Sequence record: OZ335964.1
DNA from: a phage
Direction: 5' to 3' (one strand)
Length of the DNA: 64,000 nucleotides
A program made the translations under genes and the position numbers. The notes beneath the pieces are model-generated. The model did not search any database, was not told where the DNA came from, and saw only the letters and a list, made by a program, of their open reading frames with translations. Position 1 is the stretch's first letter; every line of letters begins with the position of its first letter. Of this stretch, positions 143 to 63,254 are shown one piece after another.

Positions 143-1189
143 ATGAAAATTCAAATTTTGGATGATGCTAAAGATACTATTAATCGGGGTATCAAAGCAT
201 CTGCTGGGTTTACTAAAAAACCAGATAATACAACATTAACCGCACAATTTCCGTCTGAACGAGCTAGCGGTAATGATACTTCTGGTATATACATAAATGA
301 CCTTTATAATAACGGCTTGTTGTTTACTGCCTATGATTATAAAGAGCGTGTTACCGGTTCTCTTCGAAATTTCAGAAACGAACATAGTACATTGCGTGGA
401 TTTGGTGCACAAGGAAAGATAAGCGACAAGGAATTTTATCAAACATCTTTTGATCGCGAGGCTGTTGCTAATATCCTACTTCCTCGTAGTCAATCCGATG
501 TTGACTCGGTGAGTCATAAGTTTAATGATGTGGGTGAATCTCTCGTTACACGTGGTGGTGGCACTATTTCTGGTGCGTTGTCTGCTATGGCATCAACCGC
601 CGTATTTGGTGGTTTGGAGAGTTTAACGGGTGGTTATCTTGCCGATAAAAACGAACAGATTTATAATACCGCTCGTAGCATGTATGCTGGCGCAGATCCT
701 AGAACTAAAAACTATGTTTGGCACTTAACACCACGTAGTATTGAAGACCTGCGCAATATATTGATTATCTATGAAACTTTTGTAGAATTGTCTTATGGTT
801 CCAGCGGTATTTCTAGCACAGCAAAGCAATTAAAAGCGGAAGTTGATGCATGGTATAAAAAGACAATTCTTTCTAAGACGGTTCCAGAAGGAGCGGATAC
901 TTCCGGTACTTTGTTTGAGGGCATAACAGACTTTTTGACCAACGTGACCACGGTATCGAATCCGACTATATGGATGATCTCTAACTTTGGTAAACGTTCT
1001 GCTTATGAAGGTCGTAGCGACGTTTTCGGTCCAGCGCAAATTACTAACGTAAGGCTTGACAAATCACCAGACGGTAAATTTGGTGGTTTGGCTATTTCTC
1101 CTAACTTGCCTAGTACCTTCGTTCTGGAAGTATCGTTCAGGGAGATTCTTACTCTTTCTCGCGGTACTGTGTTTGGGAGTTCATTATAA
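143..1189 (+). CDS. 48: baseplate tail-tube cap protein gp48
   Basis: 348 aa, + strand, stop overlaps next start (TAATG); size and position match T4 gene 48 upstream of 54 and alt. Confidence 0.55.
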   Translation: MKIQILDDAKDTINRGIKASAGFTKKPDNTTLTAQFPSERASGNDTSGIYINDLYNNGLLFTAYDYKERVTGSLRNFRNEHSTLRGFGAQGKISDKEFYQTSFDREAVANILLPRSQSDVDSVSHKFNDVGESLVTRGGGTISGALSAMASTAVFGGLESLTGGYLADKNEQIYNTARSMYAGADPRTKNYVWHLTPRSIEDLRNILIIYETFVELSYGSSGISSTAKQLKAEVDAWYKKTILSKTVPEGADTSGTLFEGITDFLTNVTTVSNPTIWMISNFGKRSAYEGRSDVFGPAQITNVRLDKSPDGKFGGLAISPNLPSTFVLEVSFREILTLSRGTVFGSSL

Positions 1190-2118
1190 TGTTTGATTTA
1201 AAAGATTTCAACGAACAAGCCGCAAATCTTGATTTTCAGCGTTCTAATCTATTTTCGGTGGCATTTGCCACCGTTCCTAGTAGCAAGACACAGCAAATTT
1301 TAGAAAATTTTGGTGGTGCTATTCATGATATTATACCAGGTAAATTAAATGATTATTTTGGTATCACAGAGGGTGATTATACCGATGCTGTAAAAAATTT
1401 GGCTATACATGGAGTGCGCAGAGCCGTTACATCGTCAGGTGTCAAAAAGTATCTTTTGGGTGCAATGTCATCCCGTGTAGTTCAATCTCTTTTGGGGCAA
1501 TTTGAAGTTGGTACATATGTCATGGATTGGTTCAACATGGCATATAAGACAAGCGGTTTGATGGTATATGCTGTTAAGGTTCCAGAAAACCGATTGAGTT
1601 ATGAAATGGACAGAAACCACAATGCGCCTAACATTAGAATTACTGGACGTGATTATGACCCGTTGATTCTTAGCTTTAGAATGGACGCTAGCGCGTCTAA
1701 TTACAGGGCGATGCAGGATTGGGTTAACTCTGTAGAAGACCCCGTTACAGGGCTTCGTGCGCTTCCTGTAGACGTTGAAGCAGATATTCAAGTTAACCTA
1801 CATAATCGCATGGGTGTACCTCACACTATCATGATGTTTAATGGTTGTGTTCCTGTTGGGGTTAGTGCACCTGAGTTGAGTTATGAAAACAACAACGAGA
1901 TCACTACATTCGACGTGACGTTTGCTTATAGGACAATGCAAGTTGGTGCTGTTGGTGAGCAAGCCGCTAGAGAATGGATTGAAGATAAGGCCATAAACCT
2001 TATTCAAAATACTATAGGTGAGGGTAAAACAGGTTCATTAACTTCTGCTGGTAGTGCATTATCTAGATTGCAGGGTGTTGGTGGTAGGGTAGTTAATACT
2101 ATCACTAGATTATTTTAA
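1189..2118 (+). CDS. 54: baseplate tail-tube initiator gp54
   Basis: 309 aa, translationally coupled to gene 48; synteny 48-54-alt; followed by strong hairpin terminator. Confidence 0.55.
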   Translation: MFDLKDFNEQAANLDFQRSNLFSVAFATVPSSKTQQILENFGGAIHDIIPGKLNDYFGITEGDYTDAVKNLAIHGVRRAVTSSGVKKYLLGAMSSRVVQSLLGQFEVGTYVMDWFNMAYKTSGLMVYAVKVPENRLSYEMDRNHNAPNIRITGRDYDPLILSFRMDASASNYRAMQDWVNSVEDPVTGLRALPVDVEADIQVNLHNRMGVPHTIMMFNGCVPVGVSAPELSYENNNEITTFDVTFAYRTMQVGAVGEQAAREWIEDKAINLIQNTIGEGKTGSLTSAGSALSRLQGVGGRVVNTITRLF

Positions 2119-2120
2119 TA

Positions 2121-2148
2121 CAAAAAGGGGGCAAATGCCCCCTTTTTT
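2121..2148. terminator. bidirectional rho-independent terminator
   Basis: GGGGGC-AAAT-GCCCCC hairpin flanked by A-run and T-run between convergent genes 54 (+) and lipoprotein (-). Confidence 0.7.
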
Positions 2149-2653
2149 AATTTAGCAGATCTTCACACTGTTTACGCAGTTTATGACGATATTCTTTAGA
2201 TTGCAGTAGTTGTACTTTTTCATAATCCCCTATTTCATATGCATTTGAGAGATCATCCTGATATGCTGCCTCTGTACCAATTCGGCAAATGTCGTATTGA
2301 CGGGCTTTTTTCAAATCTAATTGTTCTCTCTCAAATTCTTTTCTTCGTTTTTCTTCTCGCTCTTGATACTTTTTATTTTGATATTCGATGTTGCTCTTAA
2401 TCTCTGCAATTCGTTGCTGTGCTTCTTGTGGCAATCCTACACGCAAAGCGGCTTCATCTTTTTTCTGTAACAGGTCGATAACACAGTATTCTGGTTCTTG
2501 ATAAGTCTGATTACCATGTGGATGGTAGTACCAACGAGCGCAATGTTCTTCGATTGACTGTATAGAAGCCGTAGCCGTTCGATAGTCTTTAATATTAGCA
2601 CAACCAGTTAACATGAATACAGCCGCAAGTCCGATTGGTTTAATCATTTTCAT
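2147..2653 (-). CDS. predicted lipoprotein, unknown function
   Basis: N-terminus MKMIKPIGLAAVFMLTGC has a signal peptide with lipobox L-T-G-C; charged coiled-coil-like C-terminal half; start overlaps upstream stop (ATGA). Confidence 0.6.
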   Translation of the reverse strand: MKMIKPIGLAAVFMLTGCANIKDYRTATASIQSIEEHCARWYYHPHGNQTYQEPEYCVIDLLQKKDEAALRVGLPQEAQQRIAEIKSNIEYQNKKYQEREEKRRKEFEREQLDLKKARQYDICRIGTEAAYQDDLSNAYEIGDYEKVQLLQSKEYRHKLRKQCEDLLN

Positions 2654-3474
2654 TTAGTCACCTCACCGAAAATTGTAAATTGTCTACGATTCTCATCGCC
2701 GAAAGATTCTACTACGTCGTTTACCTTTATGCAAGTCCCGCGCGGTAAAATTACTTCACATTCGCAAGGATTCCATGCAATTGACCCAACAACAAAACCT
2801 TTATGATCTTTTACGTCAATTACCCATGATACATTACAAGAATGTTGCATCTTTCCGGTCATTGATTCATATCGATTCTCACAATAAAGGCTAGTGCTAT
2901 TTGAAAGCCAGCCTCCAAAGATGATCGGTGTCATGCTGGTCGACACAAAGTTTTTAAAGGTAAATTCCTTATCTTCAATAATACGCTCTATTGTCTGAAT
3001 GTCAAGATGTTGACCGCGATAAAGAGTACCGTTTAACTTTTCGGTTTTATCCATGACACAATCCATCAAATCGACGATCTCTGATATCTCATCGGTCATG
3101 TCTTCTTCCCCTAAGAGAGCACCATTTACCCATTCGTATTGTTCAGACACATAATCACAGATTGCATTATATTCTGCTGGGGTTATGTTGTTATGTTTGT
3201 AATGTTTGAACACATTATCTCCAAAGTCTTCAGAGTGTACTTCATACATCACATTAATGATTTTCTTGACAAATCCATAATCTTGTGTCTCGCGCTCAAG
3301 GAAGCGGATAACATTCACGTAATCATCAAAGTTAATCTGATCGCTGATCATCTCAGTGATCATGTAACCATTAATCCCCTCAATGTCATATGTTTCAATA
3401 TAATTGTCCATACGTTCCATCATTGATTCGCGTGATTCTTCCGAAAGACGAAAATCCTGTAATTTCTTGAACAT
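2650..3474 (-). CDS. ADP-ribosyltransferase-fold protein (Alt/Mod-like paralogue)
   Basis: 274 aa with R-S-E triad in order: TLYRGQ (Arg), FVSTSMT (STS), CECEVILPRG (ExE); same motif set as Alt next door. Confidence 0.55.
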   Translation of the reverse strand: MFKKLQDFRLSEESRESMMERMDNYIETYDIEGINGYMITEMISDQINFDDYVNVIRFLERETQDYGFVKKIINVMYEVHSEDFGDNVFKHYKHNNITPAEYNAICDYVSEQYEWVNGALLGEEDMTDEISEIVDLMDCVMDKTEKLNGTLYRGQHLDIQTIERIIEDKEFTFKNFVSTSMTPIIFGGWLSNSTSLYCENRYESMTGKMQHSCNVSWVIDVKDHKGFVVGSIAWNPCECEVILPRGTCIKVNDVVESFGDENRRQFTIFGEVTK

Positions 3475-3493: not shown

Positions 3494-3528
3494 AGAAAAC
3501 GGGGCTAGTATAAAACTAGTCCCCGTTT
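3494..3528 (-). terminator. rho-independent terminator downstream of alt
   Basis: 11-bp perfect stem ACGGGGCTAGT/ACTAGTCCCCGT followed on minus strand by T-rich tract. Confidence 0.6.
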
Positions 3529-3552
3529 GAGTCAACCATTATTTCTTAAAAA

Positions 3553-5604
3553 TTACATTTTAAATTTATCTGGCATAGCGTCTACAGATACCAGATCAGC
3601 GATAAGCTGACGTAGAGTTGCCTTATCTGCTTTCTTACGTTCGGTTTTAGCTTCGGTAATAAAGCTGGAGAAAGACAGGTCAGAAGCAGGTTTAACAACA
3701 CCTTCACGGATGAATGCATCACCGTCCGCGATCATCTCGCCAGATTCTTGTAATGCTGCCAGTTCATTTTTGTTCATAATATGTGCCTCAATGTAATAAG
3801 TTTCTTGTGAATCCGTCGATGCCGTAGCACGAGTTACCGTATCAAAGGATAACACAACACCGCGAGGAAGTAAAATCTCGCATTCTTTGTAAGCAAATGC
3901 TTTGTTACCTACTGGCAATACAGGGATGTTTTCCGCGCCAGCAATGGAGAAAGCAACATTAGCGCCACCTTCACCGCGAGATCCAGCCATAGAATCTACA
4001 CCAGCAACGGCACTAGCCACGTTTGCATTCCAGCCACCAAAAATGTTAGGTGCAAGGGAAGTGCTCACATAGTTTTTAAAGTAAAACGCTTTTTGCTTAC
4101 GTGCAGTTTCCCACATTTGAGACCGGAAGTCCATACCACGATACAGAATAGTACCAGGATCAAGTTTAACGCCATAGTTAGAGAAGGCATTATCCAGTGC
4201 ATCGCACATCTTGACCAATTCTTCTGGATCTGCGATGCCTTCAAACTCTTCCAGCTTACGGTCGGTTAGGAAGTTGTTCATATTGATGTATGCTGCATCG
4301 GCATATTCGCTCAACACAAAACCTTCCGCGCCAGGCAGATCAAGATCAATATCTGCCATCATTTCACCCATGTTGCTAGCAATTGCTTCAAACATACCGG
4401 AAGCAACATTACGTAGGGCATCGGTTTTAATCTGGGTGATATGACTACGCAGCATTTCAGCTTTTACATCTGCTGGCATAGACTGGTCTACTCGATCCAT
4501 TGCCAGTGCGGTGATCTTGTTTTCGAATACTTCCTCGCTCATGATTTCTTTTAAGCGTTTGATTGATGCTGCGATAACTTCCGCAGACAACGGATCATAT
4601 TGATCCTGAACTTTTACCAGTTCACTTACTGCGTATTTTGCATCGGCTTCGCTTTCAAAAATAGTACGCATGAAACCATAGCGAGTGATAATATCACTTG
4701 TCCAGTCATTCAGAGAACGGGCGGTTGAACGTTCTAAGGCTTGACGATCAATCAGAGTATTAAACTGTTTCTTAGGTTCGGCTTCGGTGATATCTTCTTC
4801 CGGTTTAAGATTAATTTTTTCTGGATGATTCACATAGTCGCTGTTATAGGTCGCTTGAGTTTTCAGCATTTCTTCTTTAGTCAAACGAGACTTAGCCGCT
4901 ACACGTTGTTCTGCTTCCGCGTTTCGTTCTTCTTCTGATGCAAGGCTAGCCGCATACGCTTCATCTTTAGTCAGAGATTCACCAGTAGCTTTAGATACCC
5001 AGCGATCACCTAAATCACTTTCTACTTTAGTGAACAGGGAATCATCAAGTTTAATCCCTTTAATCTTATCAATCGACATCCCGCGACGCTTGACAACAAC
5101 TAAAGCGATCTTTTTGCTGGTCATTACTTCCTGCTGGAATACTTCAAACTTAGGAGTACGACGCACCAAACGCTCTATAACGCGCTTAACCAGTTCGGTC
5201 TTACCTTTCATGCGGGATACGTTAAAACGGAACATAACAGCGTCTAATTGCGCTTTACGGGCTGTTTCCATAACCACATCAAAAGCACTTGCCATAACTG
5301 CAATCGGGTTATCGCCTAGACCATTTTTAAGCTGTACAATACGACCGCTTTTGTTCATCTCGCACAGTACAACATGTGCGGTCTTGTCACCCATACGAAT
5401 GATTTTAGGTGTTTTGTTGGTGAAGTTACAAAGACGGACAATCACATCTTTATCGCGTGTCTGTACTGCAAAAAGCTGTTTAGGGTTCTGCTTAGGCTTT
5501 AAGCACTGTACCGGAGCAATACTACCAAAGTTTTCTTCCTCTTCCGTCAACAGCCATTTCTCGAAAGATTCAATCATTAGATCGTCGATTTCTAAGTTAA
5601 ACAT
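3553..5604 (-). CDS. alt: ADP-ribosyltransferase Alt (packaged, modifies host RNA polymerase in T4)
   Basis: 683 aa (T4 Alt 682 aa); C-terminal ART motifs ILYRGM, YVSTSLA, YKECEILLPRG; synteny between 54 and 30. Confidence 0.8.
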   Translation of the reverse strand: MFNLEIDDLMIESFEKWLLTEEEENFGSIAPVQCLKPKQNPKQLFAVQTRDKDVIVRLCNFTNKTPKIIRMGDKTAHVVLCEMNKSGRIVQLKNGLGDNPIAVMASAFDVVMETARKAQLDAVMFRFNVSRMKGKTELVKRVIERLVRRTPKFEVFQQEVMTSKKIALVVVKRRGMSIDKIKGIKLDDSLFTKVESDLGDRWVSKATGESLTKDEAYAASLASEEERNAEAEQRVAAKSRLTKEEMLKTQATYNSDYVNHPEKINLKPEEDITEAEPKKQFNTLIDRQALERSTARSLNDWTSDIITRYGFMRTIFESEADAKYAVSELVKVQDQYDPLSAEVIAASIKRLKEIMSEEVFENKITALAMDRVDQSMPADVKAEMLRSHITQIKTDALRNVASGMFEAIASNMGEMMADIDLDLPGAEGFVLSEYADAAYINMNNFLTDRKLEEFEGIADPEELVKMCDALDNAFSNYGVKLDPGTILYRGMDFRSQMWETARKQKAFYFKNYVSTSLAPNIFGGWNANVASAVAGVDSMAGSRGEGGANVAFSIAGAENIPVLPVGNKAFAYKECEILLPRGVVLSFDTVTRATASTDSQETYYIEAHIMNKNELAALQESGEMIADGDAFIREGVVKPASDLSFSSFITEAKTERKKADKATLRQLIADLVSVDAMPDKFKM

Positions 5605-5673: not shown

Positions 5674-5886
5674 TTATAATGCACCATCAAGCAATTGCTC
5701 TAAGGTGTATCCTGAATAGTCTTTTTCAATCAGGATATATTTTCCTACTCGTTTAATCCAGCCACGCATTTCAACGTATTCTGCGTAGTTGATAGTGCGA
5801 GTTGTTCCATCTTCTAGCAAAGCAGTACCGATTTCGTTAATGCGGTCATAAGTTACGTCGGTGATGATGATTTCGATGTTAGCCAT
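5674..5886 (-). CDS. hypothetical small early protein
   Basis: 70 aa; preceded by promoter cassette and RBS AGGAG; begins MANIE like the 8047..8298 gene, whose first codons are part of the same cassette. Confidence 0.5.
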   Translation of the reverse strand: MANIEIIITDVTYDRINEIGTALLEDGTTRTINYAEYVEMRGWIKRVGKYILIEKDYSGYTLEQLLDGAL

Positions 5887-5922: not shown

Positions 5923-5951
5923 ATTATAGGGGATCGATGATCCCCTGTCAA
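5923..5951 (-). promoter_or_regulatory. sigma70-type early promoter cassette
   Basis: Minus strand: TTGACA - 17 nt palindromic spacer GGGGATCATCGATCCCC - TATAAT, then conserved leader CCGAAACGAACT and RBS. Confidence 0.6.
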
Positions 5952-5958
5952 CAACTTT

Positions 5959-6477
5959 TTAGTTATTTTTTAATTGCTCATCTTGCAATAAAGCAATCAC
6001 ATGCTGGCGATGTTCTTCCGACTGAGGCACACCGAAAAAGTTTGTTTTGTAGAAATACTCTAATCGGTCTTCTCGTGTGCTCTCTTCCATCATGATCGCG
6101 GGTAGTCCGAGATTTCGGAAACGTCGCTTTTCTGCTGGCGTAAAATCGCTGTAATACAGCATAGAATCATCATTACCAGCAATGCTAAACTCATCCTTCA
6201 TGAAAGAGAATATTGCGTTTAAACGCTGTTTACCGTCCACGATTTCGATCTCATAGCGAGAGCCATCATCAATCTTAGCCATTGCGATAGCACCAACCGG
6301 AAAATCATTAATCAGGTTTTCGATAAACATACGTTTGTTTTCTGTGTCCCATACTAAAGGACGCTGATAATCTGGGTTCATGTTGATAAAGCCATCTTCT
6401 AGCCATGCTTCATAGACAGATATGACAAAGTTTTTAGTATTGGTATAGTAACGGCGTTTAGGCGTTAAACGGTTCAT
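5959..6477 (-). CDS. DUF262/ParB-like domain protein (GmrS N-terminal-domain-like)
   Basis: Motifs DYQRPLVW, FPVG and VDGKQRLNAI (DGQQR-like); start MNRLTPKRR chosen by RBS AGGAGA and coupling to upstream stop (track ORF extends to 6513). Confidence 0.6.
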   Translation of the reverse strand: MNRLTPKRRYYTNTKNFVISVYEAWLEDGFINMNPDYQRPLVWDTENKRMFIENLINDFPVGAIAMAKIDDGSRYEIEIVDGKQRLNAIFSFMKDEFSIAGNDDSMLYYSDFTPAEKRRFRNLGLPAIMMEESTREDRLEYFYKTNFFGVPQSEEHRQHVIALLQDEQLKNN

Positions 6478-6478
6478 G

Positions 6479-6811
6479 TTATAGTCTCCTGAATGGATCA
6501 TCACGTAAATCAATATCTTTTAAGAACTCATCCCATGAATGGCGGATATTGTTCTTAATTCTCCAGATAAGCGCAGGGATTGAACGCTCTCCCATCTGGA
6601 AGTAAGGATCATATGATCCGTATGCCCAATATGCTACTACAATTCCACAATCAGCGCAATAGTATTCTATTTCACTTGCTGGCGACCAAAGTCCATCAAT
6701 ATGATCGGTGATCTTGCTTTCGATGTTATGGCTATGGCAATCAGGGCAACGGATGCAATGACCTTGTTTATCGTAATTTGACGTTAGCGAATACTTAAAC
6801 AATCTCATCAT
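6479..6811 (-). CDS. Cys-rich zinc-ribbon protein
   Basis: 110 aa with CIRCPDC ... CADCG cysteine clusters; start overlaps upstream stop (ATGATGA). Confidence 0.5.
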   Translation of the reverse strand: MMRLFKYSLTSNYDKQGHCIRCPDCHSHNIESKITDHIDGLWSPASEIEYYCADCGIVVAYWAYGSYDPYFQMGERSIPALIWRIKNNIRHSWDEFLKDIDLRDDPFRRL

Positions 6812-7572
6812 AGATCCTTATTGGCTTCAAATACTGCCTTTGCGAATCCTCGCGGGGTAAGTGACCTGATAGTCTTTGTTCTGGTTCCTTTCCCGCCTAG
6901 CTTAGAATGCTGTTTACTGTACCCTTTCTCAATCGGCAACGGTTTCTTTTCTGGCATTATAAAGCCTTGTCCGGTCCATAAGCAAGTCTTTTTCGGGTAC
7001 ATATCACGGGCGGCAATATACTCAGGAAACGTAGGATGTATATCATCTTCCGGCAAATAACCGCCATATTCCCACGGGTGGAACATGTAATCAGGCTTAC
7101 GCCACATGCTAGAGATAACGCTTACAGGATTCTCTATCATGTAGGGAACTCCTAGCCATTCACCCAAATAAGCTGTTATTTTAGCTGCCCGTACATCATG
7201 AACTTGAATTAATGGTCCTTGCTCTCGTTTCTTTCGTTCAAAGTGTGCAGCGCCACTAACAGCTAAATTTGAACAGCTAGGAAACGCAAAGATCATATCC
7301 GGTTTGCCCCATTCAAGATCCATCGCCCTTTCCAACCAATCCAGATCTATCCATGAATTAACATAAGTTAAATTTGGGTGTTCAAATCGAGTGTTATACT
7401 TTTTATATGTTCCATGATCGGCATCATCAGCATTAAAGCAGATCACTTTATGACCTGCTTTAGCCCATTCTAGACCCATAATACCGGACCCATCGAATGT
7501 ACAAAATATAAGTTTACTTTCCGTGGTTTTCATGATAGCCATACTCTCTTTCTGCTTTGGTTCTAACTGCAA
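6808..7572 (-). CDS. SAM-dependent methyltransferase-like protein with C5-cytosine-MTase-type motifs
   Basis: 254 aa; FDGSGIMG (motif I FxGxG), FAFPSCS (motif IV Pro-Cys), MIENPVS (motif VI ENV-like) with canonical spacing; no obvious TRD or motifs VIII-X, so function uncertain. Confidence 0.45.
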   Translation of the reverse strand: MQLEPKQKESMAIMKTTESKLIFCTFDGSGIMGLEWAKAGHKVICFNADDADHGTYKKYNTRFEHPNLTYVNSWIDLDWLERAMDLEWGKPDMIFAFPSCSNLAVSGAAHFERKKREQGPLIQVHDVRAAKITAYLGEWLGVPYMIENPVSVISSMWRKPDYMFHPWEYGGYLPEDDIHPTFPEYIAARDMYPKKTCLWTGQGFIMPEKKPLPIEKGYSKQHSKLGGKGTRTKTIRSLTPRGFAKAVFEANKDL

Positions 7573-8050
7573 CGGCTTCTTCTAGTGTGTCGAAACACCC
7601 TAGATATTTTCTATCACCGCGTCGACCGCCGCCAATTCTAACTACCCATTTATTGTATTTGTTTTTATGTATTCCACTATGTCCGCTTGTATTCTTTTTA
7701 GACTTTGTTTGATTTCTCATGTTGTCGCGGTGTAGTTTAAGTTCAAAGTTAACCGCTCTATTATCTGTCTTAATGTGATTAATATGATCTACTTCATATC
7801 CTTCTGGTATAGGTCCATTGTGGATAATATAACATACTCGATGAACTTTGTAGTTAATAATTTTACCGTCAATTTTTATTGACGATTCAAGATAACGTCC
7901 ACCACTTCCTAGTGACCCGACCTCCTTTCCAGCCCATGCAGCATTCCATTGTTTTATTCTTGATGGGTGTATATCTGTTCTCTCCTTCCATGTAAGGATA
8001 CCAGTGTCAGGATCATAATTAAAGTATTTCTTCCAGTCTATATTGTTCAC
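7514..8050 (-). CDS. HNH homing endonuclease with AP2-like DNA-binding domain
   Basis: 178 aa; HNH_3-type motif VDHINHIKTDNRAVNFEL plus AP2-like SGHSGIHKNKYNKWVVRIGGGRRGDRKYLGCFDTLEEAVAVR. Confidence 0.75.
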   Translation of the reverse strand: MNNIDWKKYFNYDPDTGILTWKERTDIHPSRIKQWNAAWAGKEVGSLGSGGRYLESSIKIDGKIINYKVHRVCYIIHNGPIPEGYEVDHINHIKTDNRAVNFELKLHRDNMRNQTKSKKNTSGHSGIHKNKYNKWVVRIGGGRRGDRKYLGCFDTLEEAVAVRTKAEREYGYHENHGK

Positions 8051-8381: not shown

Positions 8382-8855
8382 TTATTTGCACCAAATTCGA
8401 ATTATTTCGTCTCGTTCAAATTTCTGCCAGATTACTCGGTCACCCGCTGCCATGATACTGACAAATCCAGTTGTGTTTCCTGTGTACTTGCTTTTAGTCT
8501 CGGCATCATATTCAAAGAATGGTGCTTTAAGATCGCTAAACTCATCTTTTCCCACAAACTTCATAACATGACGATGCGCGTAATATTCGCTTCTTAGTGT
8601 TGTTGTGATAGTTCCGTCATTATTTGATTTCAGATGTAATTCTGCATCTTCATAAAGACTTGCATCTCGTTGTTTACTTTCAATACCGTCGTTATATGTT
8701 GATTTCGTTGCACTCCAACATTGATAAGTTTTATCAACATTTTCGATCTTTTCCTGTGTCATATCAAAAAGCGGTGCAACCTTTTTCTTAGCCGCGTGTG
8801 CTACGTTGGTCATGGACAGTGCTGCAACAACCACAATAGCAATAATCTTCTTCAT
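8382..8855 (-). CDS. secreted/periplasmic protein, unknown function
   Basis: 157 aa; N-terminal signal peptide MKKIIAIVVVAALSMTNVAHA. Confidence 0.6.
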   Translation of the reverse strand: MKKIIAIVVVAALSMTNVAHAAKKKVAPLFDMTQEKIENVDKTYQCWSATKSTYNDGIESKQRDASLYEDAELHLKSNNDGTITTTLRSEYYAHRHVMKFVGKDEFSDLKAPFFEYDAETKSKYTGNTTGFVSIMAAGDRVIWQKFERDEIIRIWCK

Positions 8856-16982: not shown

Positions 16983-17186
16983 TTAACCGTATACGCGAAA
17001 GTATTCTACTGTTCCGTCGCTATACTGTTTTACATTGAATGTATTCACGCCATGATCATTGCTCATAATGACATATACACTGCGACGCTCATCACCAAAC
17101 GGGTTAACTGGTGCGGGTTCAATTTCAACATTAAAACCACGTTTAGCAAGTGCTTCGCCTAATTGCTTGAGTTTATCGGTAAACAT
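16983..17186 (-). CDS. hypothetical small protein
   Basis: 67 aa ORF between cd and pseT. Confidence 0.45.
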   Translation of the reverse strand: MFTDKLKQLGEALAKRGFNVEIEPAPVNPFGDERRSVYVIMSNDHGVNTFNVKQYSDGTVEYFRVYG

Positions 17187-18085
17187 TAAAAGTCTCCGTA
17201 GTTAACCTGAAAACATTCTACACCAATTGAGCGGTACATGTCAACCACTTGATCACGGTCGTCTACTGCCAAAACAACATGATAACGCGGTGCAATTTCA
17301 GAGAAGAAAATCTCTTTCTTCACTTCATGGTCAGGACGACGATCATTAGTTTCGCGCTGGAAGTGATCACTAGGTTCAATACCTTGTTCACGCAACCATT
17401 GCAGCGTATCTTCCTCGCAAACATCCTCACGTCCTGAGCACGTAATGATACGATAGCCATTATCACGATACAGTTTAAGCATTTCGATCACTTGCGGACG
17501 CGGTTTATCTTCTTTGACCTTTGTCCAGTCAAACGGATGACGACCGCCCTTATCCGCTAATGTTCCATCAATATCAAAGATCACTGCCTTCGGCAGCATT
17601 GTATTCGGTTTGTATACTTCTTGACCCATATATTCCTGCATCAGATAAAATTGGTTACGCAAATGAGAAAGTGGAATTGCTTTCTCGCCGCGATAGAAAT
17701 TACGTTTCTTTAGTGTCTCAAATGATTCATTGAACACTTGTTCAGTATACACCGCGTTAAATTCTTTTGCAAGTTCTTTGTAGAATACACGATGTTTTTC
17801 TTTCAGGTTGGTATCGGAGATAATGATACTCAATCCGCGTGATAGAGTCTCACGAGCAATCATTCTCTGAATAGACTCTACCAGCTTTTCTTTTTCCTTA
17901 GTATACTTGTATTTCAAAAGTGAGTCAACACCAAACAACATAAGACGAAGATCATCGCGATTCACATTACGATAATTACTAAACCGTTTACATGTTTCCA
18001 TAGCCCATGTAGTTTTACCAGACCCAGAACAACCAACGGTTAAAATCACTTCACATTTCGGCATTATTTCTCCTTCGGTTTGCAC
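17186..18085 (-). CDS. pseT: polynucleotide 5'-kinase/3'-phosphatase
   Basis: 299 aa (T4 PNK 301 aa); Walker A GCSGSGKTTWA and HAD phosphatase motif VIFDIDGTLAD. Confidence 0.9.
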   Translation of the reverse strand: MQTEGEIMPKCEVILTVGCSGSGKTTWAMETCKRFSNYRNVNRDDLRLMLFGVDSLLKYKYTKEKEKLVESIQRMIARETLSRGLSIIISDTNLKEKHRVFYKELAKEFNAVYTEQVFNESFETLKKRNFYRGEKAIPLSHLRNQFYLMQEYMGQEVYKPNTMLPKAVIFDIDGTLADKGGRHPFDWTKVKEDKPRPQVIEMLKLYRDNGYRIITCSGREDVCEEDTLQWLREQGIEPSDHFQRETNDRRPDHEVKKEIFFSEIAPRYHVVLAVDDRDQVVDMYRSIGVECFQVNYGDF

Positions 18086-18516
18086 CGTTCCTCATTAAGT
18101 TCTTTGCGATAATAACACATGATCAACTTACTTTCAAGTGTATATCTCTTAATATCAGCCAACCAAACTCTAAATTTTTGGGAGTCCTCCCACGACATAG
18201 AAACTCTAGGTTTACCGTCTATTGTATCCACTTTCAGGTTAATGTCAACTTTTTCTATTGGTGCTGGTAGTGGAGGATGTAATTTCGGTTCCTGTGAATA
18301 ATGGTCCATTGTACACGAAGAAAGAGCAAATACAATAGGCACAGCGAAGACATGGATTATGGCGGTCTGAAAATTCTTATGTGCTTTCTTAAACATCCAG
18401 TGTATCACGAAAATTGAAAACACCATAAGGATAATAATGCTTGCACCTATCCCCAGATAATCAACCAGATTAAAATTGTTTATCTGCTCTTGCGTAGGCA
18501 ATATTTCTATGCTCAT
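18064..18516 (-). CDS. membrane protein, unknown function
   Basis: 150 aa with two hydrophobic helices (IGASIIILMVFSIFVIHW, IIHVFAVPIVFAL); exact start uncertain. Confidence 0.45.
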   Translation of the reverse strand: MSIEILPTQEQINNFNLVDYLGIGASIIILMVFSIFVIHWMFKKAHKNFQTAIIHVFAVPIVFALSSCTMDHYSQEPKLHPPLPAPIEKVDINLKVDTIDGKPRVSMSWEDSQKFRVWLADIKRYTLESKLIMCYYRKELNEERCKPKEK

Positions 18517-40418: not shown

Positions 40419-43049
40419 ATGGCAGATTTAAGCAGAATCCAATTTAAACGCACTAGCACTAAAGGCCGTCGACCTGATGCTGGTACGATGAATCCGGGGG
40501 AATTGGCAATCAATCTTGCGGATCAATATCTTCTTACTAAAAATGATTCCGGTGCTATTATCAATTTAAGTTGTCCTCCGGTTTATGACCGTGATGTTAC
40601 AATGGCGGGTAAAGTTAAAGGAAATAATTATATTTTAAGTAAAACCGCTAACTATCTGGAAGATCAGACAGCGCGAGATCTTAACTACTTTGGTGCTTTC
40701 CGTACCAATGGTCTTGATGGTTTTCTCGAACTCACGCTAAACGTTCCTCATTCTTCTGGTGTTCAGCATGGTCGAGGATTTACTTTCCAGTATGGACACA
40801 CAGGAAACCGTGTAGAAACTTATGGTTATAATAAAGAAGGACAAAAAGCATTTAGTTATAAAATGTATCACGAAGGTGATAAACCAACTCCAGGAGAATT
40901 GAACGTCTATAGCAAACAAGAAATTGACCGTATGTTTGTGAAAAACGTTAAAATGTCTGTTCCTTCCGGTGACGCAACTCGTGGTTACTTTAAGATCGCG
41001 ACCGCAATGATTCCGCAGAATGGTCGAATGGCATTTTTACGAATTTACGGCGGAAACGGATATAATGTTAACTCCTACGACCAGGTTGATTTCCTTGAAA
41101 TTGTGATTCGCGGTGGTAATAATAACCCTAAAGGTGTTAGTATTGCTGCATATCGTCGAAATTCTTTGAACGTACATGAGGTATTTGCAATTAATACTTC
41201 CGGTGATAACTATGACATTTATGTTAACTATGGTCGTTACACCGATAACGTTATTGTCGAGTTTGGAAAAACTGTTGATGTTGCATTGACTGTTCATGAT
41301 GTTCCTGAATTTTCTGCGACTAAACCAGCAACCGGAACTAAATTTGATGCTCGTGTTATTACGATGTTCAACACCGAAAACAAAGCCGGAACGTTGATGT
41401 TTGATAATAACTCACAAGCAACCTATGATATTGTGAGCCTTAATAACGTACCAGACAACAATAAAAAATATATGCGTAAATTCCGCAGTCGTGCGGCGGA
41501 AACAATATGGCATGAAACTGTTCAAGGTGATGTGTATCGTTTGGCTACTGGTTCTACCGACCAAAAAGAAGTATTAAAAATTGTTGGTAGTGATGGTTTA
41601 TTTGTCGATAGACTTCATCTGCAAGGCAATAACGCGATTCGTATGTGGCGTCCTACTGGTCGTAGTAACTATTTTGAATATATGGATCAGCGAGATGGTG
41701 CTAATAAGCGTCAAGGTTGGTTTGGCTTTGGTTCTATAGATACTAACGATTTTCAATGGTATAGTGACGAAGGTAAAAACTTTGTTAAGCTAGAAGCAAG
41801 TGGTCAAGTATCTTTAAGTACTGGTGCGACCAAAATTGTATACACTAATGGTCAATATGTAGCTGCCAATTCTGATGCATACCGTATGATCTTTGGTAAT
41901 TACGGTGCATTCTGGCGTAATGACGGCACTAAAGTTTATCTTCTTTCTACGGCTGAAAATGATAAATTTGGTGGCTGGAATACCTACCGACCGTTTATCT
42001 ATAATTTAGTATCTGGAAACGTTGATTTGGGTGGTGATACCACAGCCTCCGCATTGACCTTAGAAGGTGCAAGCAAAACCGCTCGATTTGGTGGTCATGT
42101 TTATACAGGCGGTAACTTACATAATACAGGTCAGTATATAACTATGGAGGCCGGACTTGCTGGTCAATCAATGGATTATATTCGTTTTAACCATTGGGGT
42201 AGTAGCAGCACCGGACGAAATAACATCTTGTATGTTGAAGACAGCAAAGGTCGTCATTTTTCTACCGAACGTTCTTCCACAGGAGCACTTAAAGCTGACT
42301 TTTTAGGTGAACTCGAAGTTGGTGGTAAGCTGACATGGGGTAAGGGTACAGCTAAATCCTCGTTTAACTTACGAGTGTGGGGCAATGATTCCCGTAAACA
42401 AGTGTTTGAATGTGCGGACGAAAGCGGTTGGCATTTCTATACCCAGCGTGCGGGTGGTCCTGGAACTAATGTAATTGAGTTTAACGTAAACGGTAGGATT
42501 ACTGTTCCTGAATTATATGTTGGTACTGCTGCATCAATATCTAAAATCAATGGTGCTTTTGGTGTCGGTACTACTAATGGATTAGGTGGTAGTTCAATTA
42601 CTCTGGGTGATAGTGATACTGGCTTTAAGCAAAATGGCGATGGCAACCTTGATGTTTATGCTAACAACGTTGCAGTAATGCGTTTTACTTCTGGTGCGAT
42701 TACCGCAAACAAACAATTGAACGTATCTGGTCGTGTTAACCCGTCTGATTATGGAAACTTTGATGGTCGTTATATCAAAAAGACCAGAGGATGGACTAGA
42801 ATATGGACGGGTACACTAGGTGGGAATACTCAGACCGGAACATTGCCTCAAGACCTTCGCTACCGTAACGTGTGGATCGTAATGGCTGATGGATTTAAAA
42901 ACTTCTTCCGTTTTGGTGATGACGGTACTTATTATCTGTCTGGTTATGGAGGTTGGATTAAAATGCAACTTCACTCTAGTGGTAAGATCTTTAAAAATAT
43001 TCAAGACCATTATTGCGTTCCTCGCGAAATTTGGGTTGAAAACGAATAA
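40419..43049 (+). CDS. 37: long tail fibre distal subunit / receptor-binding protein gp37
   Basis: 876 aa; N-terminus MADL; Gly-rich C-terminal region; immediately upstream of holin t with no gene 38-sized ORF between. Confidence 0.65.
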   Translation: MADLSRIQFKRTSTKGRRPDAGTMNPGELAINLADQYLLTKNDSGAIINLSCPPVYDRDVTMAGKVKGNNYILSKTANYLEDQTARDLNYFGAFRTNGLDGFLELTLNVPHSSGVQHGRGFTFQYGHTGNRVETYGYNKEGQKAFSYKMYHEGDKPTPGELNVYSKQEIDRMFVKNVKMSVPSGDATRGYFKIATAMIPQNGRMAFLRIYGGNGYNVNSYDQVDFLEIVIRGGNNNPKGVSIAAYRRNSLNVHEVFAINTSGDNYDIYVNYGRYTDNVIVEFGKTVDVALTVHDVPEFSATKPATGTKFDARVITMFNTENKAGTLMFDNNSQATYDIVSLNNVPDNNKKYMRKFRSRAAETIWHETVQGDVYRLATGSTDQKEVLKIVGSDGLFVDRLHLQGNNAIRMWRPTGRSNYFEYMDQRDGANKRQGWFGFGSIDTNDFQWYSDEGKNFVKLEASGQVSLSTGATKIVYTNGQYVAANSDAYRMIFGNYGAFWRNDGTKVYLLSTAENDKFGGWNTYRPFIYNLVSGNVDLGGDTTASALTLEGASKTARFGGHVYTGGNLHNTGQYITMEAGLAGQSMDYIRFNHWGSSSTGRNNILYVEDSKGRHFSTERSSTGALKADFLGELEVGGKLTWGKGTAKSSFNLRVWGNDSRKQVFECADESGWHFYTQRAGGPGTNVIEFNVNGRITVPELYVGTAASISKINGAFGVGTTNGLGGSSITLGDSDTGFKQNGDGNLDVYANNVAVMRFTSGAITANKQLNVSGRVNPSDYGNFDGRYIKKTRGWTRIWTGTLGGNTQTGTLPQDLRYRNVWIVMADGFKNFFRFGDDGTYYLSGYGGWIKMQLHSSGKIFKNIQDHYCVPREIWVENE

Positions 43050-45572: not shown

Positions 45573-45854
45573 TTATTTTCGGTTGTACTTCTGCCACTTT
45601 CGGTAATACTGCTTGTAAACCTGTTTTGCGTTTTCACCATCTTTACTATACATGTTATCTACCATCAAGTCAATAAGACCTTCCGGTGTCTGGTAGTTCC
45701 CCGCTCGAATAAGTTCTTTAATTAAAGTGTCCTGATGATCTTTGTATACTACGTTAATGATGGTCTTTTCTGCTTTCTTCGTCCCGATCATCCGGTGATT
45801 AGCTTTCATCGCATCCCACCAATCTTTTGTGATCTTCATGTTATTGAATTGCAT
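45573..45854 (-). CDS. hypothetical protein
   Basis: 93 aa basic protein. Confidence 0.45.
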   Translation of the reverse strand: MQFNNMKITKDWWDAMKANHRMIGTKKAEKTIINVVYKDHQDTLIKELIRAGNYQTPEGLIDLMVDNMYSKDGENAKQVYKQYYRKWQKYNRK

Positions 45855-45865
45855 AATTTAACCTC

Positions 45866-46624
45866 TTACTTGCACACGTATTGATCTACATCAATTGCGC
45901 CACCGAATGTAGGATGACGTTTTTCAAATCGAATAGTTCCGTCGTTTGGTTCGAAAACGGAGTATTCATATAGATCTTTCTTGCCAACATTCTTATAAAA
46001 CCCGCCTTTAGTCATAACGGTTTCTTGTACGTTTGCTTTGTGTACGTTGTATTCGTCAATGTATACAAAATCAACCATCTTCCCATTTTTAATGGTTACT
46101 TTAAGATCTCCTGGTTGGTTTCCATATTTTGCATACAGTGGAGCTTCTTTAATTTTGGTGGAAATTCCATCTTTCATACTCCACTCATAACGAACGGTGC
46201 ATTGATAGGTAAAAGTTTCGACCTTCGGTTCTTCCACCACTTTTTCTTCCTGTTTCGGTTGTTCTTCGTCAACCTTCACGGAAGTCTCTGAATCGCTTTC
46301 TGACGCGGTTTCTTCTTTAGGTAATACATTCATCAAGTTTTGGATTTGAGCGTTGTATACAGCCTCCAGTGGCTGAATCTGCCCGATATTGATCATTGTA
46401 TCACGAACAGTTTTATTCCAGTTGCGTTGCTCTTGTTTCAGAGACGGATCAATCTTAACAGCCTTAACATATACTTCATGAAGTTTCGAATCCAGTGCGG
46501 AGATTGACTCATTAGCACAAATAAACTTCTCTGATTTGGTAGTGGCTTTAGCGCAATCAAAGGACGCAGCATTAGCACCGAAAGCAGTAGCAGAAAGAAC
46601 GATAGCAGCGATAATGTTTTTCAT
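45866..46624 (-). CDS. secreted protein with LprI/DUF1311-like N-terminal domain
   Basis: 252 aa from MKNIIAAIVLSATAFGANA (signal peptide); ASFDCAKATTKSEKFIC...LDSKL...QRNWNKTVRD pattern; track ORF's extension overlaps the promoter. Confidence 0.5.
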   Translation of the reverse strand: MKNIIAAIVLSATAFGANAASFDCAKATTKSEKFICANESISALDSKLHEVYVKAVKIDPSLKQEQRNWNKTVRDTMINIGQIQPLEAVYNAQIQNLMNVLPKEETASESDSETSVKVDEEQPKQEEKVVEEPKVETFTYQCTVRYEWSMKDGISTKIKEAPLYAKYGNQPGDLKVTIKNGKMVDFVYIDEYNVHKANVQETVMTKGGFYKNVGKKDLYEYSVFEPNDGTIRFEKRHPTFGGAIDVDQYVCK

Positions 46625-46658
46625 AATATATTCCTCAGTGTTTTGTCTTGATGGGAGT

Positions 46659-62324: not shown

Positions 62325-63254
62325 ATGAACTATAAACGTATTTATGATAACCTGATTGAACGTGCTAAGACTAGAACTATCGACGGATATACAGAAAAGC
62401 ATCACATCATACCACGTTGTATGAATGGAAGCGATGATGATAGCAATCTAGTTAGACTCACCCCAGAGGAACATTACATTGCTCACCTTCTGTTAGTTAA
62501 GATTTACCCAGATAACAGTAAATTGGTTTATGCTGCAAATATGATGTGCGTTTCTTCTGATTCACATAATGGAGAAAGACAGTCAAATAAACGTCATGGT
62601 TGGTTGCGTAGAAAAATGGCAGAGGCACATAGTAAAAGAATCCGCGATAGAATGGAGAACGATCCTGAATATAGAGCTAAGGTTTCGGAATGGGCTAGAA
62701 AAATGGGTAAAGCCATGAAAGGAGTTAAGCGAGGACCGGAATTTAGCAGAAAGTTGGCAGAAAGAAACAGAAATACCGTGATGAAAGAAGAAACTAAACG
62801 TAAAATCGGGGAAGCCAACAAAGGAAGGAAACGTACAGAAGAATATAAAAGAAAACATAGTGAGCGGTATAAGGGTGAAGGTAATCCGATGTATGGTAAA
62901 CGAGGAAAGGAACATCCGGCATATGGTACTAAACCGTGGAACAACCAAACATCATTTGTTGAGCAGAAAGCATGGTGGCGGTTCGCTGGCATGTTCTATG
63001 ACTGGTATCAGATGGATATTGACCGTGGGAAACATAAACGCCACGGTCATAAAAGAATGCTTGATGAATTGGGTTTTGTTGGTTGGCGAGAAAAAGAGCC
63101 AGCCGCAGCAAGACGATCAATTGAAATGTTTGCTAAAGGCTGGAATCCTTATGAAGACCAAGAATGGTTAGATTATATTAATACCCGCTTTCCAAACGAC
63201 GATAGTTTTCCGCGTTCTTCAACATATACAAAACAAACAAATCCTTTGCAGTAA
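62325..63254 (+). CDS. HNH homing endonuclease with NUMOD3-like repeats
   Basis: 309 aa; EKHHIIPRCMNGSDDDSNLVRLTPEEHYIAH (HNH) and repeated basic HSKRIRDRM / KRKIGEANKGRK / HSERYKGEGNPMYGKRGKEH motifs; only + strand gene in this block. Confidence 0.7.
   Translation: MNYKRIYDNLIERAKTRTIDGYTEKHHIIPRCMNGSDDDSNLVRLTPEEHYIAHLLLVKIYPDNSKLVYAANMMCVSSDSHNGERQSNKRHGWLRRKMAEAHSKRIRDRMENDPEYRAKVSEWARKMGKAMKGVKRGPEFSRKLAERNRNTVMKEETKRKIGEANKGRKRTEEYKRKHSERYKGEGNPMYGKRGKEHPAYGTKPWNNQTSFVEQKAWWRFAGMFYDWYQMDIDRGKHKRHGHKRMLDELGFVGWREKEPAAARRSIEMFAKGWNPYEDQEWLDYINTRFPNDDSFPRSSTYTKQTNPLQ

Follow-up and report, generated by a model that had tools for sequence, protein, structure and literature searches.

Virulent phages T5 and T1 express outer-membrane lipoproteins, Llp and Cor respectively, for exclusion (PMC9586334; PMC11990801), and in this paradigm the gene of the exclusion lipoprotein lies beside that of the receptor-binding protein and is matched to the receptor (PMC11990801). 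Phage T4 has two early genes whose products act in the envelope, Imm, an inner-membrane protein, and Sp, which has an ordinary signal peptide and is soluble in the periplasm. Here we describe a lipoprotein gene at positions 2147..2653 (minus strand) of a 64,000-nucleotide stretch of phage DNA (sequence record OZ335964.1; referred to in full as the window), which belongs to a Krischvirus (RB49-like, T4-related) phage and whose first 8 kb are ~93% identical in DNA to phages JK32 and Whisky. The gene is a homologue of RB49p182 (annotated 'hypothetical protein') and occurs in three discrete allele classes, exchanged as a cassette between genomes that are otherwise nearly identical, a pattern which suggests a locus of conflict and makes a role in exclusion a tentative proposal. 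A few records already annotate the product as a lipoprotein, and the allele-cassette pattern is new here; a literature search retrieved no paper on the function or allelic structure of the RB49p182-like gene.

Like Llp of T5 and Cor of T1/phi80, virulent or temperate siphophages whose outer-membrane lipoproteins inactivate FhuA, the window protein is phage-encoded, predicted to reside in the inner leaflet of the outer membrane, probably early and, if its putative disulfide pairings are right, disulfide-stabilised. It differs from them in being ~2.5 times larger, all-helical and equipped with a long charged spacer, and it has no sequence or fold similarity to either; moreover, unlike theirs, its gene is unlinked to the receptor-binding genes and does not co-vary with them. 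T4 Imm and Sp come from the same phage family and are comparable to the window protein in its proposed role, although neither resembles it. Its true homologue is phrog_16112/RB49p182, which has the same slot, lipobox and cysteine pattern at 28-78% identity, the window copy belonging to the rare class A whereas most records carry class C. The features on which the argument rests are the following.

2147..2653, minus strand: coding sequence of the lipoprotein precursor, 168 amino acids, ATG start, TAA stop (coordinates include the stop), allele class A.
2603..2653, minus strand: signal peptide, residues 1-17, MKMIKPIGLAAVFMLTG, with Lys2 and Lys5 in the n-region, a hydrophobic core at residues 7-14 and the lipobox L-T-G.
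2600..2602, minus strand: codon of Cys18, the predicted lipidated first residue of the mature protein, followed by Ala19 at +2.
2285..2482, minus strand: segment between Cys57 and Cys123, residues 58-123, 46% charged overall, of varying sequence and constant length.
1950..2650: divergence island, in which the nucleotide identity of the window to JK32, RB49 and E26 drops to about 30-75%, from 96-99%.

With the RB49 protein as query, tblastn found the gene in 59 phage records, all of RB49-like phages of E. coli or Shigella, and these formed three discrete classes that are ~30% identical to one another. Class C comprises 51 records with 95-100% identity to the RB49 protein, class B six records (E26, PHB13, 011D4, G37-3, AV108 and PTE-Eco09) with ~30%, and class A two records (JK32 and Whisky) plus the window, with ~28-30%; within class A, the window lipoprotein is 76-78% identical to those of JK32 and Whisky. 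The divergence is sharply confined, as the window and RB49 proteins are 99% identical for Alt, 99% for the ADP-ribosyltransferase (ART) paralogue, 34% for the lipoprotein, 86% for gp54 and 76% for gp48. The drop in nucleotide identity coincides exactly with the lipoprotein start, and the values rise again within the 3' end of gp54. The C-terminus of gp54 (1936..2118, plus strand, ~60 codons) itself lies in the island and, in the comparison with JK32, is 60-85% identical, as against 90-100% upstream.

The clearest case is provided by RB49 (class C) and E26 (class B), whose aligned genomes are 96.6% identical. At the protein level they have 100% identity in ART, gp54 and Alt (synonymous divergence, dS, at most 0.08) and 99% in gp48, whereas the lipoproteins share 36% identity with saturated dS; it is the lipoprotein gene alone that has been exchanged. 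Within class A, the window and JK32 genes have a ratio of nonsynonymous to synonymous divergence (dN/dS) of 0.08, that is, they are under purifying selection, and the alleles are therefore old and functional rather than decaying. Classes A and B have a nearly identical C-terminal module and differ in the N-terminal two-thirds, the members of class A are mosaics of segments, and the N-terminal, membrane-proximal module is the most variable part of the protein. Deep, discrete and purified alleles that are swapped as cassettes are typical of conflict loci, and by this analogy the pattern suggests that the lipoprotein gene is one.

The first-pass annotation, made from the sequence alone, had read a canonical lipobox in this open reading frame (ORF), and formal rule-based prediction bore it out: the N-terminus of the product, MKMIKPIGLAAVFMLTGC / MKMIKPIGLAAVFMLTGCANIK, has LTGC at residues 15-18 and passed three rule sets. 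PROSITE PS51257 asks for a Lys or Arg in the first seven residues, an uncharged core followed by [LIVMFWSTAG](2)-[LIVMFYSTAGCQ]-[AGS]-C, and the cysteine at position 15-35; the product matched with GLAAVFMLTGC, Cys18, and both Lys2 and Lys5 among its first seven residues, and the G+LPP pattern and the DOLOP lipobox matched as well. Among the 557 Met-start ORFs of at least 60 amino acids in the six frames of the window, PS51257 was passed by two loci only, 2147..2653 and 18064..18396, and so the rule is specific in this sequence. The signal peptide is the best-conserved stretch of the lipoprotein family, and the sole match in a PDB sequence search was the signal peptide of the lipoprotein TraV. 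All 20 homologues compared have Gly17 and Cys18, and at +2 they have Ala, Val or Ser, never Asp. In E. coli, a residue other than Asp at +2 leads to Lol-dependent sorting to the outer membrane, and Ala19 thus predicts that the protein is sorted there by Lol. Two annotations made independently concur, in that the record of phage W115, whose authors ran LipoP (PMC9355613), labels its homologue 'putative lipoprotein', and the homologue of phage KFS-EC (UniProt A0A345BS00) is named 'Lipoprotein'. Judged from these sequence signals, the product is very probably a real lipoprotein and probably located in the outer membrane.

An ORF arising by chance, or a decaying gene, with a fortuitous lipobox could account for the finding that no Pfam family matches the product. 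It is refuted by the conservation data, namely the conserved position and length, the cysteine pattern that is invariant in 20 of 20 homologues and the dN/dS of 0.08, and it also sits badly with a confident AlphaFold2 model and with a proper Shine-Dalgarno sequence and terminator; we consider its probability negligible.

The highly charged helical region noted at first reading was likewise confirmed. The mature protein contains 26 Lys or Arg and 28 Asp or Glu among 151 residues, and the charged fraction reaches 57% in residues 86-120, which hold nine i/i+4 pairs of opposite charge. An AlphaFold2 model built on a 12-sequence alignment is all-helical (mean predicted local distance difference test score, pLDDT, 86), with helices at 31-43, 54-72, 79-141, 144-150 and 153-167, and segment 58-123 supplies most of the long helix 79-141. 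Beyond the lipobox cysteine there are exactly four cysteines in each of the 20 homologues, at identities of 23-79%; the spacing from Cys57 to Cys123 is 64-69 residues in 18 of the 20 and that from Cys123 to Cys163 is 40 residues in 19. Cys38-Cys57 and Cys123-Cys163 could staple two small helical modules, the pairings themselves being predicted, and the charged helix between the modules may serve as a rigid spacer whose length, but not sequence, is conserved. Such a spacer would keep the C-terminal module several nanometres away from the outer membrane, on its periplasmic side and at about the depth of the peptidoglycan. No PDB entry matched the model in Foldseek with E below 1, and a Foldseek search of viral models returned family members only.

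The family is tiny, with 13 matches in an exhaustive profile search of 1.84 billion representative proteins. The window protein matched phrog_16112 over its full length (E = 5.2e-19; residues 1-166 aligned to positions 1-159 of the 161-position profile), and matches to lipoprotein families of NCBIfam were sub-threshold and covered the signal peptide only, as for the Lpp/OprI model NF040598, which scored 13 bits (curated cut-off, 43). The protein belongs to none of the families Llp, Cor, Rz1, Sp, Imm, Imm.1 and Lpp, since tests for their defining features came out negative. The gene occupies the slot between the short ART gene and gp54 in the four annotations examined (JK32, RB49, E26 and GEC-3S), and an ADP-ribosyltransferase feature adjoins the tblastn match in the remaining records of the 59. 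All eight distant members, found on metagenomic T4-like contigs at 23-37% identity, directly follow the short ART paralogue, with a junction that is either an overlap of 4-8 nt or a gap of a few nucleotides with a conserved GAGGT Shine-Dalgarno sequence; wherever the contig reaches further, Alt precedes the pair and gp54 faces it. Two single distant members used as queries for related loci matched nothing in viral contigs. T4 has no lipoprotein in the equivalent slot, and its Alt.-3 has no signal peptide.

Given these lipoprotein properties, one explanation is a mask of the Llp/Cor type, in which the protein would inactivate the phage's own receptor from the periplasm, thereby barring siblings and sparing progeny from loss on debris. 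The precedent for a probably early outer-membrane lipoprotein in a virulent phage is T5 Llp and T1 Cor (PMC9586334), RB49-like phages can use OmpA (PMC9569957), and it is the membrane-proximal module that varies most. The adhesin genes, however, do not fit. Two types of gp38, with at least 94% or ~80-84% identity to that of RB49, occur with every lipoprotein class: within class A, Whisky has 95% and JK32 84%; within class B, AV108 has 98%, PTE-Eco09 96%, 011D4 83%, E26 82.5% and PHB13 80%; and class C records carry both types. The gp38 of Brandy49 is the most divergent of four phages studied (PMC9569957), yet its lipoprotein is class C, with 97.5% identity to that of RB49. Nor did the types of the gp37 tip show any association, since they cross the lipoprotein classes. 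The gene does not adjoin the receptor-binding genes (in RB49, gp38 lies ~65 kb from the lipoprotein locus), and it resembles neither Llp nor Cor. A whole-genome comparison of RB49 with E26 revealed ~30 divergent islands, and gp5, gp12, gp27-29, gp48 and gp54 were not among them. Because allele class tracks neither gp38, gp37 nor the hub proteins, a mask matched to the phage's own receptor is disfavoured, and we regard it as improbable. The suggestion in the first-pass annotation that such lipoproteins exclude by blocking receptors is weakened accordingly where the receptor is concerned, as class is independent of gp38 and gp37, the locus lies apart from them, and similarity to Llp, Cor and Spackle is lacking.

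Several other loci were considered alongside the adhesins. The protein encoded at 8382..8855 (minus strand; 157 amino acids, signal peptide MKKIIAIVVVAALSMTNVAHA, no family match) is a sporadic periplasmic accessory protein found in seven phage records only, at 97-99% identity in FL38, MIZ2/3/6 and G2494 and 57% in RB49; it was rejected as a partner of the classes, since the five records with the window's variant have class C lipoproteins. The protein encoded at 45866..46627 was rejected as well, being 98% identical to RB49p262 and 67% to the E26 copy and thus not following class. Its neighbour at 45573..45854 (minus strand), a 93-residue protein without an N-terminal signal peptide, is 51% identical to RB49 and 76% to E26; these values loosely parallel the three-way pattern of the lipoprotein, probably by coincidence. 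In the C-terminal region of gp37 (41850..43049, plus strand), the distal 100-180 residues had no match with more than 80% coverage among 50,697 phage records, and partial matches reach tail fibres of the P1/P2 type. Between gp37 and the holin gene lies a small ORF of 79 amino acids that is not gp38, as in RB49.

The independence of the alleles from all virion proteins tested leaves room for a variable partner that is encoded by the host. The lipoprotein would then manipulate the host or counter a defence, binding a periplasmic or outer-membrane machine (envelope-stress signalling, outer membrane-peptidoglycan tethers and BAM/Lpt are examples) or an envelope-associated defence, with the classes tracking polymorphic host targets. 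A rigid spacer of conserved length that reaches towards the peptidoglycan fits the binding of a periplasmic structure, and one metagenomic homologue carries the pipeline-derived name 'outer membrane protein assembly factor'. That name, however, finds no support in Pfam, NCBIfam, or PDB sequence or fold searches, the window protein matched no defence or anti-defence model in PADLOC, and class C varies little (95-100% conserved) among phages whose E. coli and Shigella isolation hosts are very different. We therefore treat this explanation as a serious rival, though an unlikely one.

The lipoprotein gene follows the ART paralogue directly, and their arrangement is made up of the following features.

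2650..3474, minus strand: ART paralogue, 274 amino acids, PF03496 at 58 bits, phrog_15144 at E = 3e-197; first gene of the unit.
2659..2664, minus strand: Shine-Dalgarno sequence GAGGTG of the lipoprotein gene, within the last ART codons (G-E-V), conserved in distant loci.
3507..3535, minus strand: predicted sigma-70-like promoter TTGACT-17-TATACT, upstream of the ART paralogue.
2122..2148, both strands: bidirectional intrinsic terminator GGGGGC-AAAT-GCCCCC with flanking A/T runs (-19.8 kcal/mol, z = -4.4).
1189..2118, plus strand: gp54 gene, convergent with the lipoprotein gene.
143..1189: gp48 gene.

The first-pass annotation held that the lipoprotein gene is co-transcribed with, and coupled to, the ART gene. 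Its physical basis was upheld: the lipoprotein ATG (2653-2651) overlaps the ART TGA (2652-2650) by 4 nt (ATGA), the Shine-Dalgarno sequence lies inside ART, and no terminator was found between the two genes. The terminator at 2122..2148 is common to the lipoprotein gene and the convergent gp54 gene and is annotated as a two-strand terminator in the GEC-3S record. A hairpin at 3501-3524, downstream of alt (3553..5604), overlaps the ART promoter and could terminate alt transcripts; for the site of this promoter, the GEC-3S record gives a promoter and that of Makalu_001 a terminator. No T4-type late promoter (TATAAATA) was found near the lipoprotein gene. Taken together, promoter, ART paralogue, lipoprotein gene and terminator point to a two-gene transcription unit, whose transcription we infer from sequence, and, as the promoter is sigma-70-like, to expression that is probably early.

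Could the lipoprotein, then, be a dedicated partner of the ADP-ribosyltransferase, such as an immunity protein, chaperone or export factor? The pair, with its translational coupling, is strictly kept in the 59 isolates and in all eight distant relatives, down to ART identities of 30-63%, and the motifs of the window ART are intact (Y-R-G at 152, S-T-S at 178, E-C-E at 238). It has no signal peptide, however, so that the two proteins should occupy different compartments, and ART is 99-100% identical where the lipoproteins are 34-36% identical, which shows no co-evolution and argues against a specific partnership. A partner role is thus very doubtful, and the coupling, although physically conserved, looks organisational.

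Further upstream on the same strand, a perfect sigma-70 consensus, TTGACA-17-TATAAT (12/12), lies at 5923..5951 ahead of a small ORF (5674..5886) and alt, and the GEC-3S record annotates promoters in the corresponding region. Upstream of alt, a 184-residue ORF at 5959..6513 (minus strand) matches GmrSD_N (DUF262, PF03235) at E = 6e-20 and represents the N-terminal domain of a type IV restriction enzyme, here carried by a phage. Two other ORFs, both of the HNH type and homing-endonuclease-like, are probably mobile elements, namely one with HNH_3 at 7514..8050 (minus strand, E = 7e-15), which has no RB49 counterpart at that position, and an ORF at 62325..63254 (plus strand), opposite in strand to its neighbours, with NUMOD3 and a weak HNH match.

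A lysis-related role, as a spanin-like protein, a lysis-timing component or a Spackle-like inhibitor of the tail lysozyme, was weighed as well. Rz1-type o-spanins are likewise outer-membrane lipoproteins of phages, the long helix could span part of the periplasm, and T4 Sp is also a small helical periplasmic protein. The second locus that passed PS51257 bears directly on this.

18064..18396, minus strand: o-spanin (phrog_812, Rz-like) with the lipobox ..FALSSC.., within ORF 18064..18516; T4 pseT.3-type.

This gene adjoins the pseT-like polynucleotide kinase gene (17186..18085), placing the spanin pair at ~18.1-18.5 kb, and RB49 is listed in the T4 spanin family (PMC6139136). As the phage's real o-spanin is thus 18064..18396, that identity was rejected for 2147..2653, whose product, in addition, is not proline-rich, has no i-spanin partner, is flanked by ART and gp54, and has no late promoter. 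Nor does it have the C-terminal membrane segment of unimolecular spanins. The fold matched neither Spackle nor any PDB entry, and the phage has a separate secreted protein with an LprI domain at 45866..46627. Altogether, we find a lysis role very unlikely. Besides an ordinary signal peptide, MKNIIAAIVLSATAFGANA, the protein at 45866..46627 (minus strand) carries a lysozyme-inhibitor domain of the LprI type (PF07007, 24.8 bits; cut-off, 22), which makes it a possible, and better, candidate for Spackle-like inhibition of the tail lysozyme.

Imm.1 of T4 (PF17578), encoded next to imm, bears a superficial resemblance to the window protein, with an LAGC lipobox and four further cysteines, the last of which stands six residues from the C-terminus as in the window lipoprotein. 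Homology was rejected: hhalign gave a probability of 10% over 39 aligned columns that comprise only the signal peptide and first cysteine, and there was no Pfam match. T4 imm.1 itself (L021:8137-8514, minus strand, equivalent to NC_000866 26636..27013) has an exemplary lipoprotein signal, MKIAILVIALGLAGC, and its RefSeq label, 'iduronate sulfatase', looks like a mis-annotation.

The explanation we favour, tentatively and at less than even confidence, is a role in exclusion or envelope conflict. The precursor is predicted to be exported by Sec, lipidated at Cys18 by Lgt and cleaved by signal peptidase II (LspA), whereupon Lol would carry the mature lipoprotein to the periplasmic face of the outer membrane. 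There it may act as a lytic-conversion factor, modifying the infected cell's envelope from the periplasm, and the altered envelope might hinder the entry of other phages, with exclusion during or after adsorption, or shield the infected cell and its progeny. The target would belong either to the host envelope or to incoming competitor phages and would not be matched to the phage's own adhesin, and the three allele classes would be alternative specificities maintained by conflict. We favour this role because of the precedent of Llp and Cor, the conflict-like allele pattern, and the fact that imm and sp are not detectable in Krischvirus: no homologue of these T4 genes was detected in RB49, E26 or the window (tblastn, E 0.05 or worse), and RB49 keeps rI, t and rII, which leaves the exclusion function without an assigned gene in this genus.

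Several observations weigh against this role or against its premises. In sequence and fold, the protein resembled no known exclusion protein. Allele class does not co-vary with gp38, gp37, gp5, gp12, gp27-29, gp48 or gp54, and thus gives no indication of a self-exclusion factor adapted to the entry machinery of the phage itself. Discrete old alleles could also have come by import from distant phages, without selection driven by conflict. At the level of the protein, the class B relatives have the lipobox L/I-N-G-C, which falls outside the strict PROSITE pattern, and the relative placement of the two modules is uncertain because the predicted template modelling score (pTM) of the AlphaFold2 model is only 0.56. 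Finally, the promoter is a consensus match only, and promoter-like matches are no commoner in the region than in shuffled sequence. A more far-reaching version of the exclusion role, which we deem rather unlikely, is that the lipoprotein is the founding member of a new envelope-acting exclusion family of T4-related phages that replaces Imm and Sp in Krischvirus, with the three classes as distinct specificities under frequency-dependent competition among co-circulating phages.

Irrespective of function, a sharply bounded cassette of three alleles within DNA that is 96-100% identical offers a natural experiment on balancing selection and targeted recombination in virulent phages. Were the gene to confer no exclusion phenotype, its product would simply add to the conserved hypothetical proteins of the envelope. 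RB49-like phages have been isolated widely and serve as therapy candidates, and if the gene controls exclusion, the design of cocktails would be affected, since phages that differ in allele class might exclude each other or might not. If exclusion holds true, it would also explain how superinfection and lysis inhibition are handled in a T4-related genus without detectable imm and sp.

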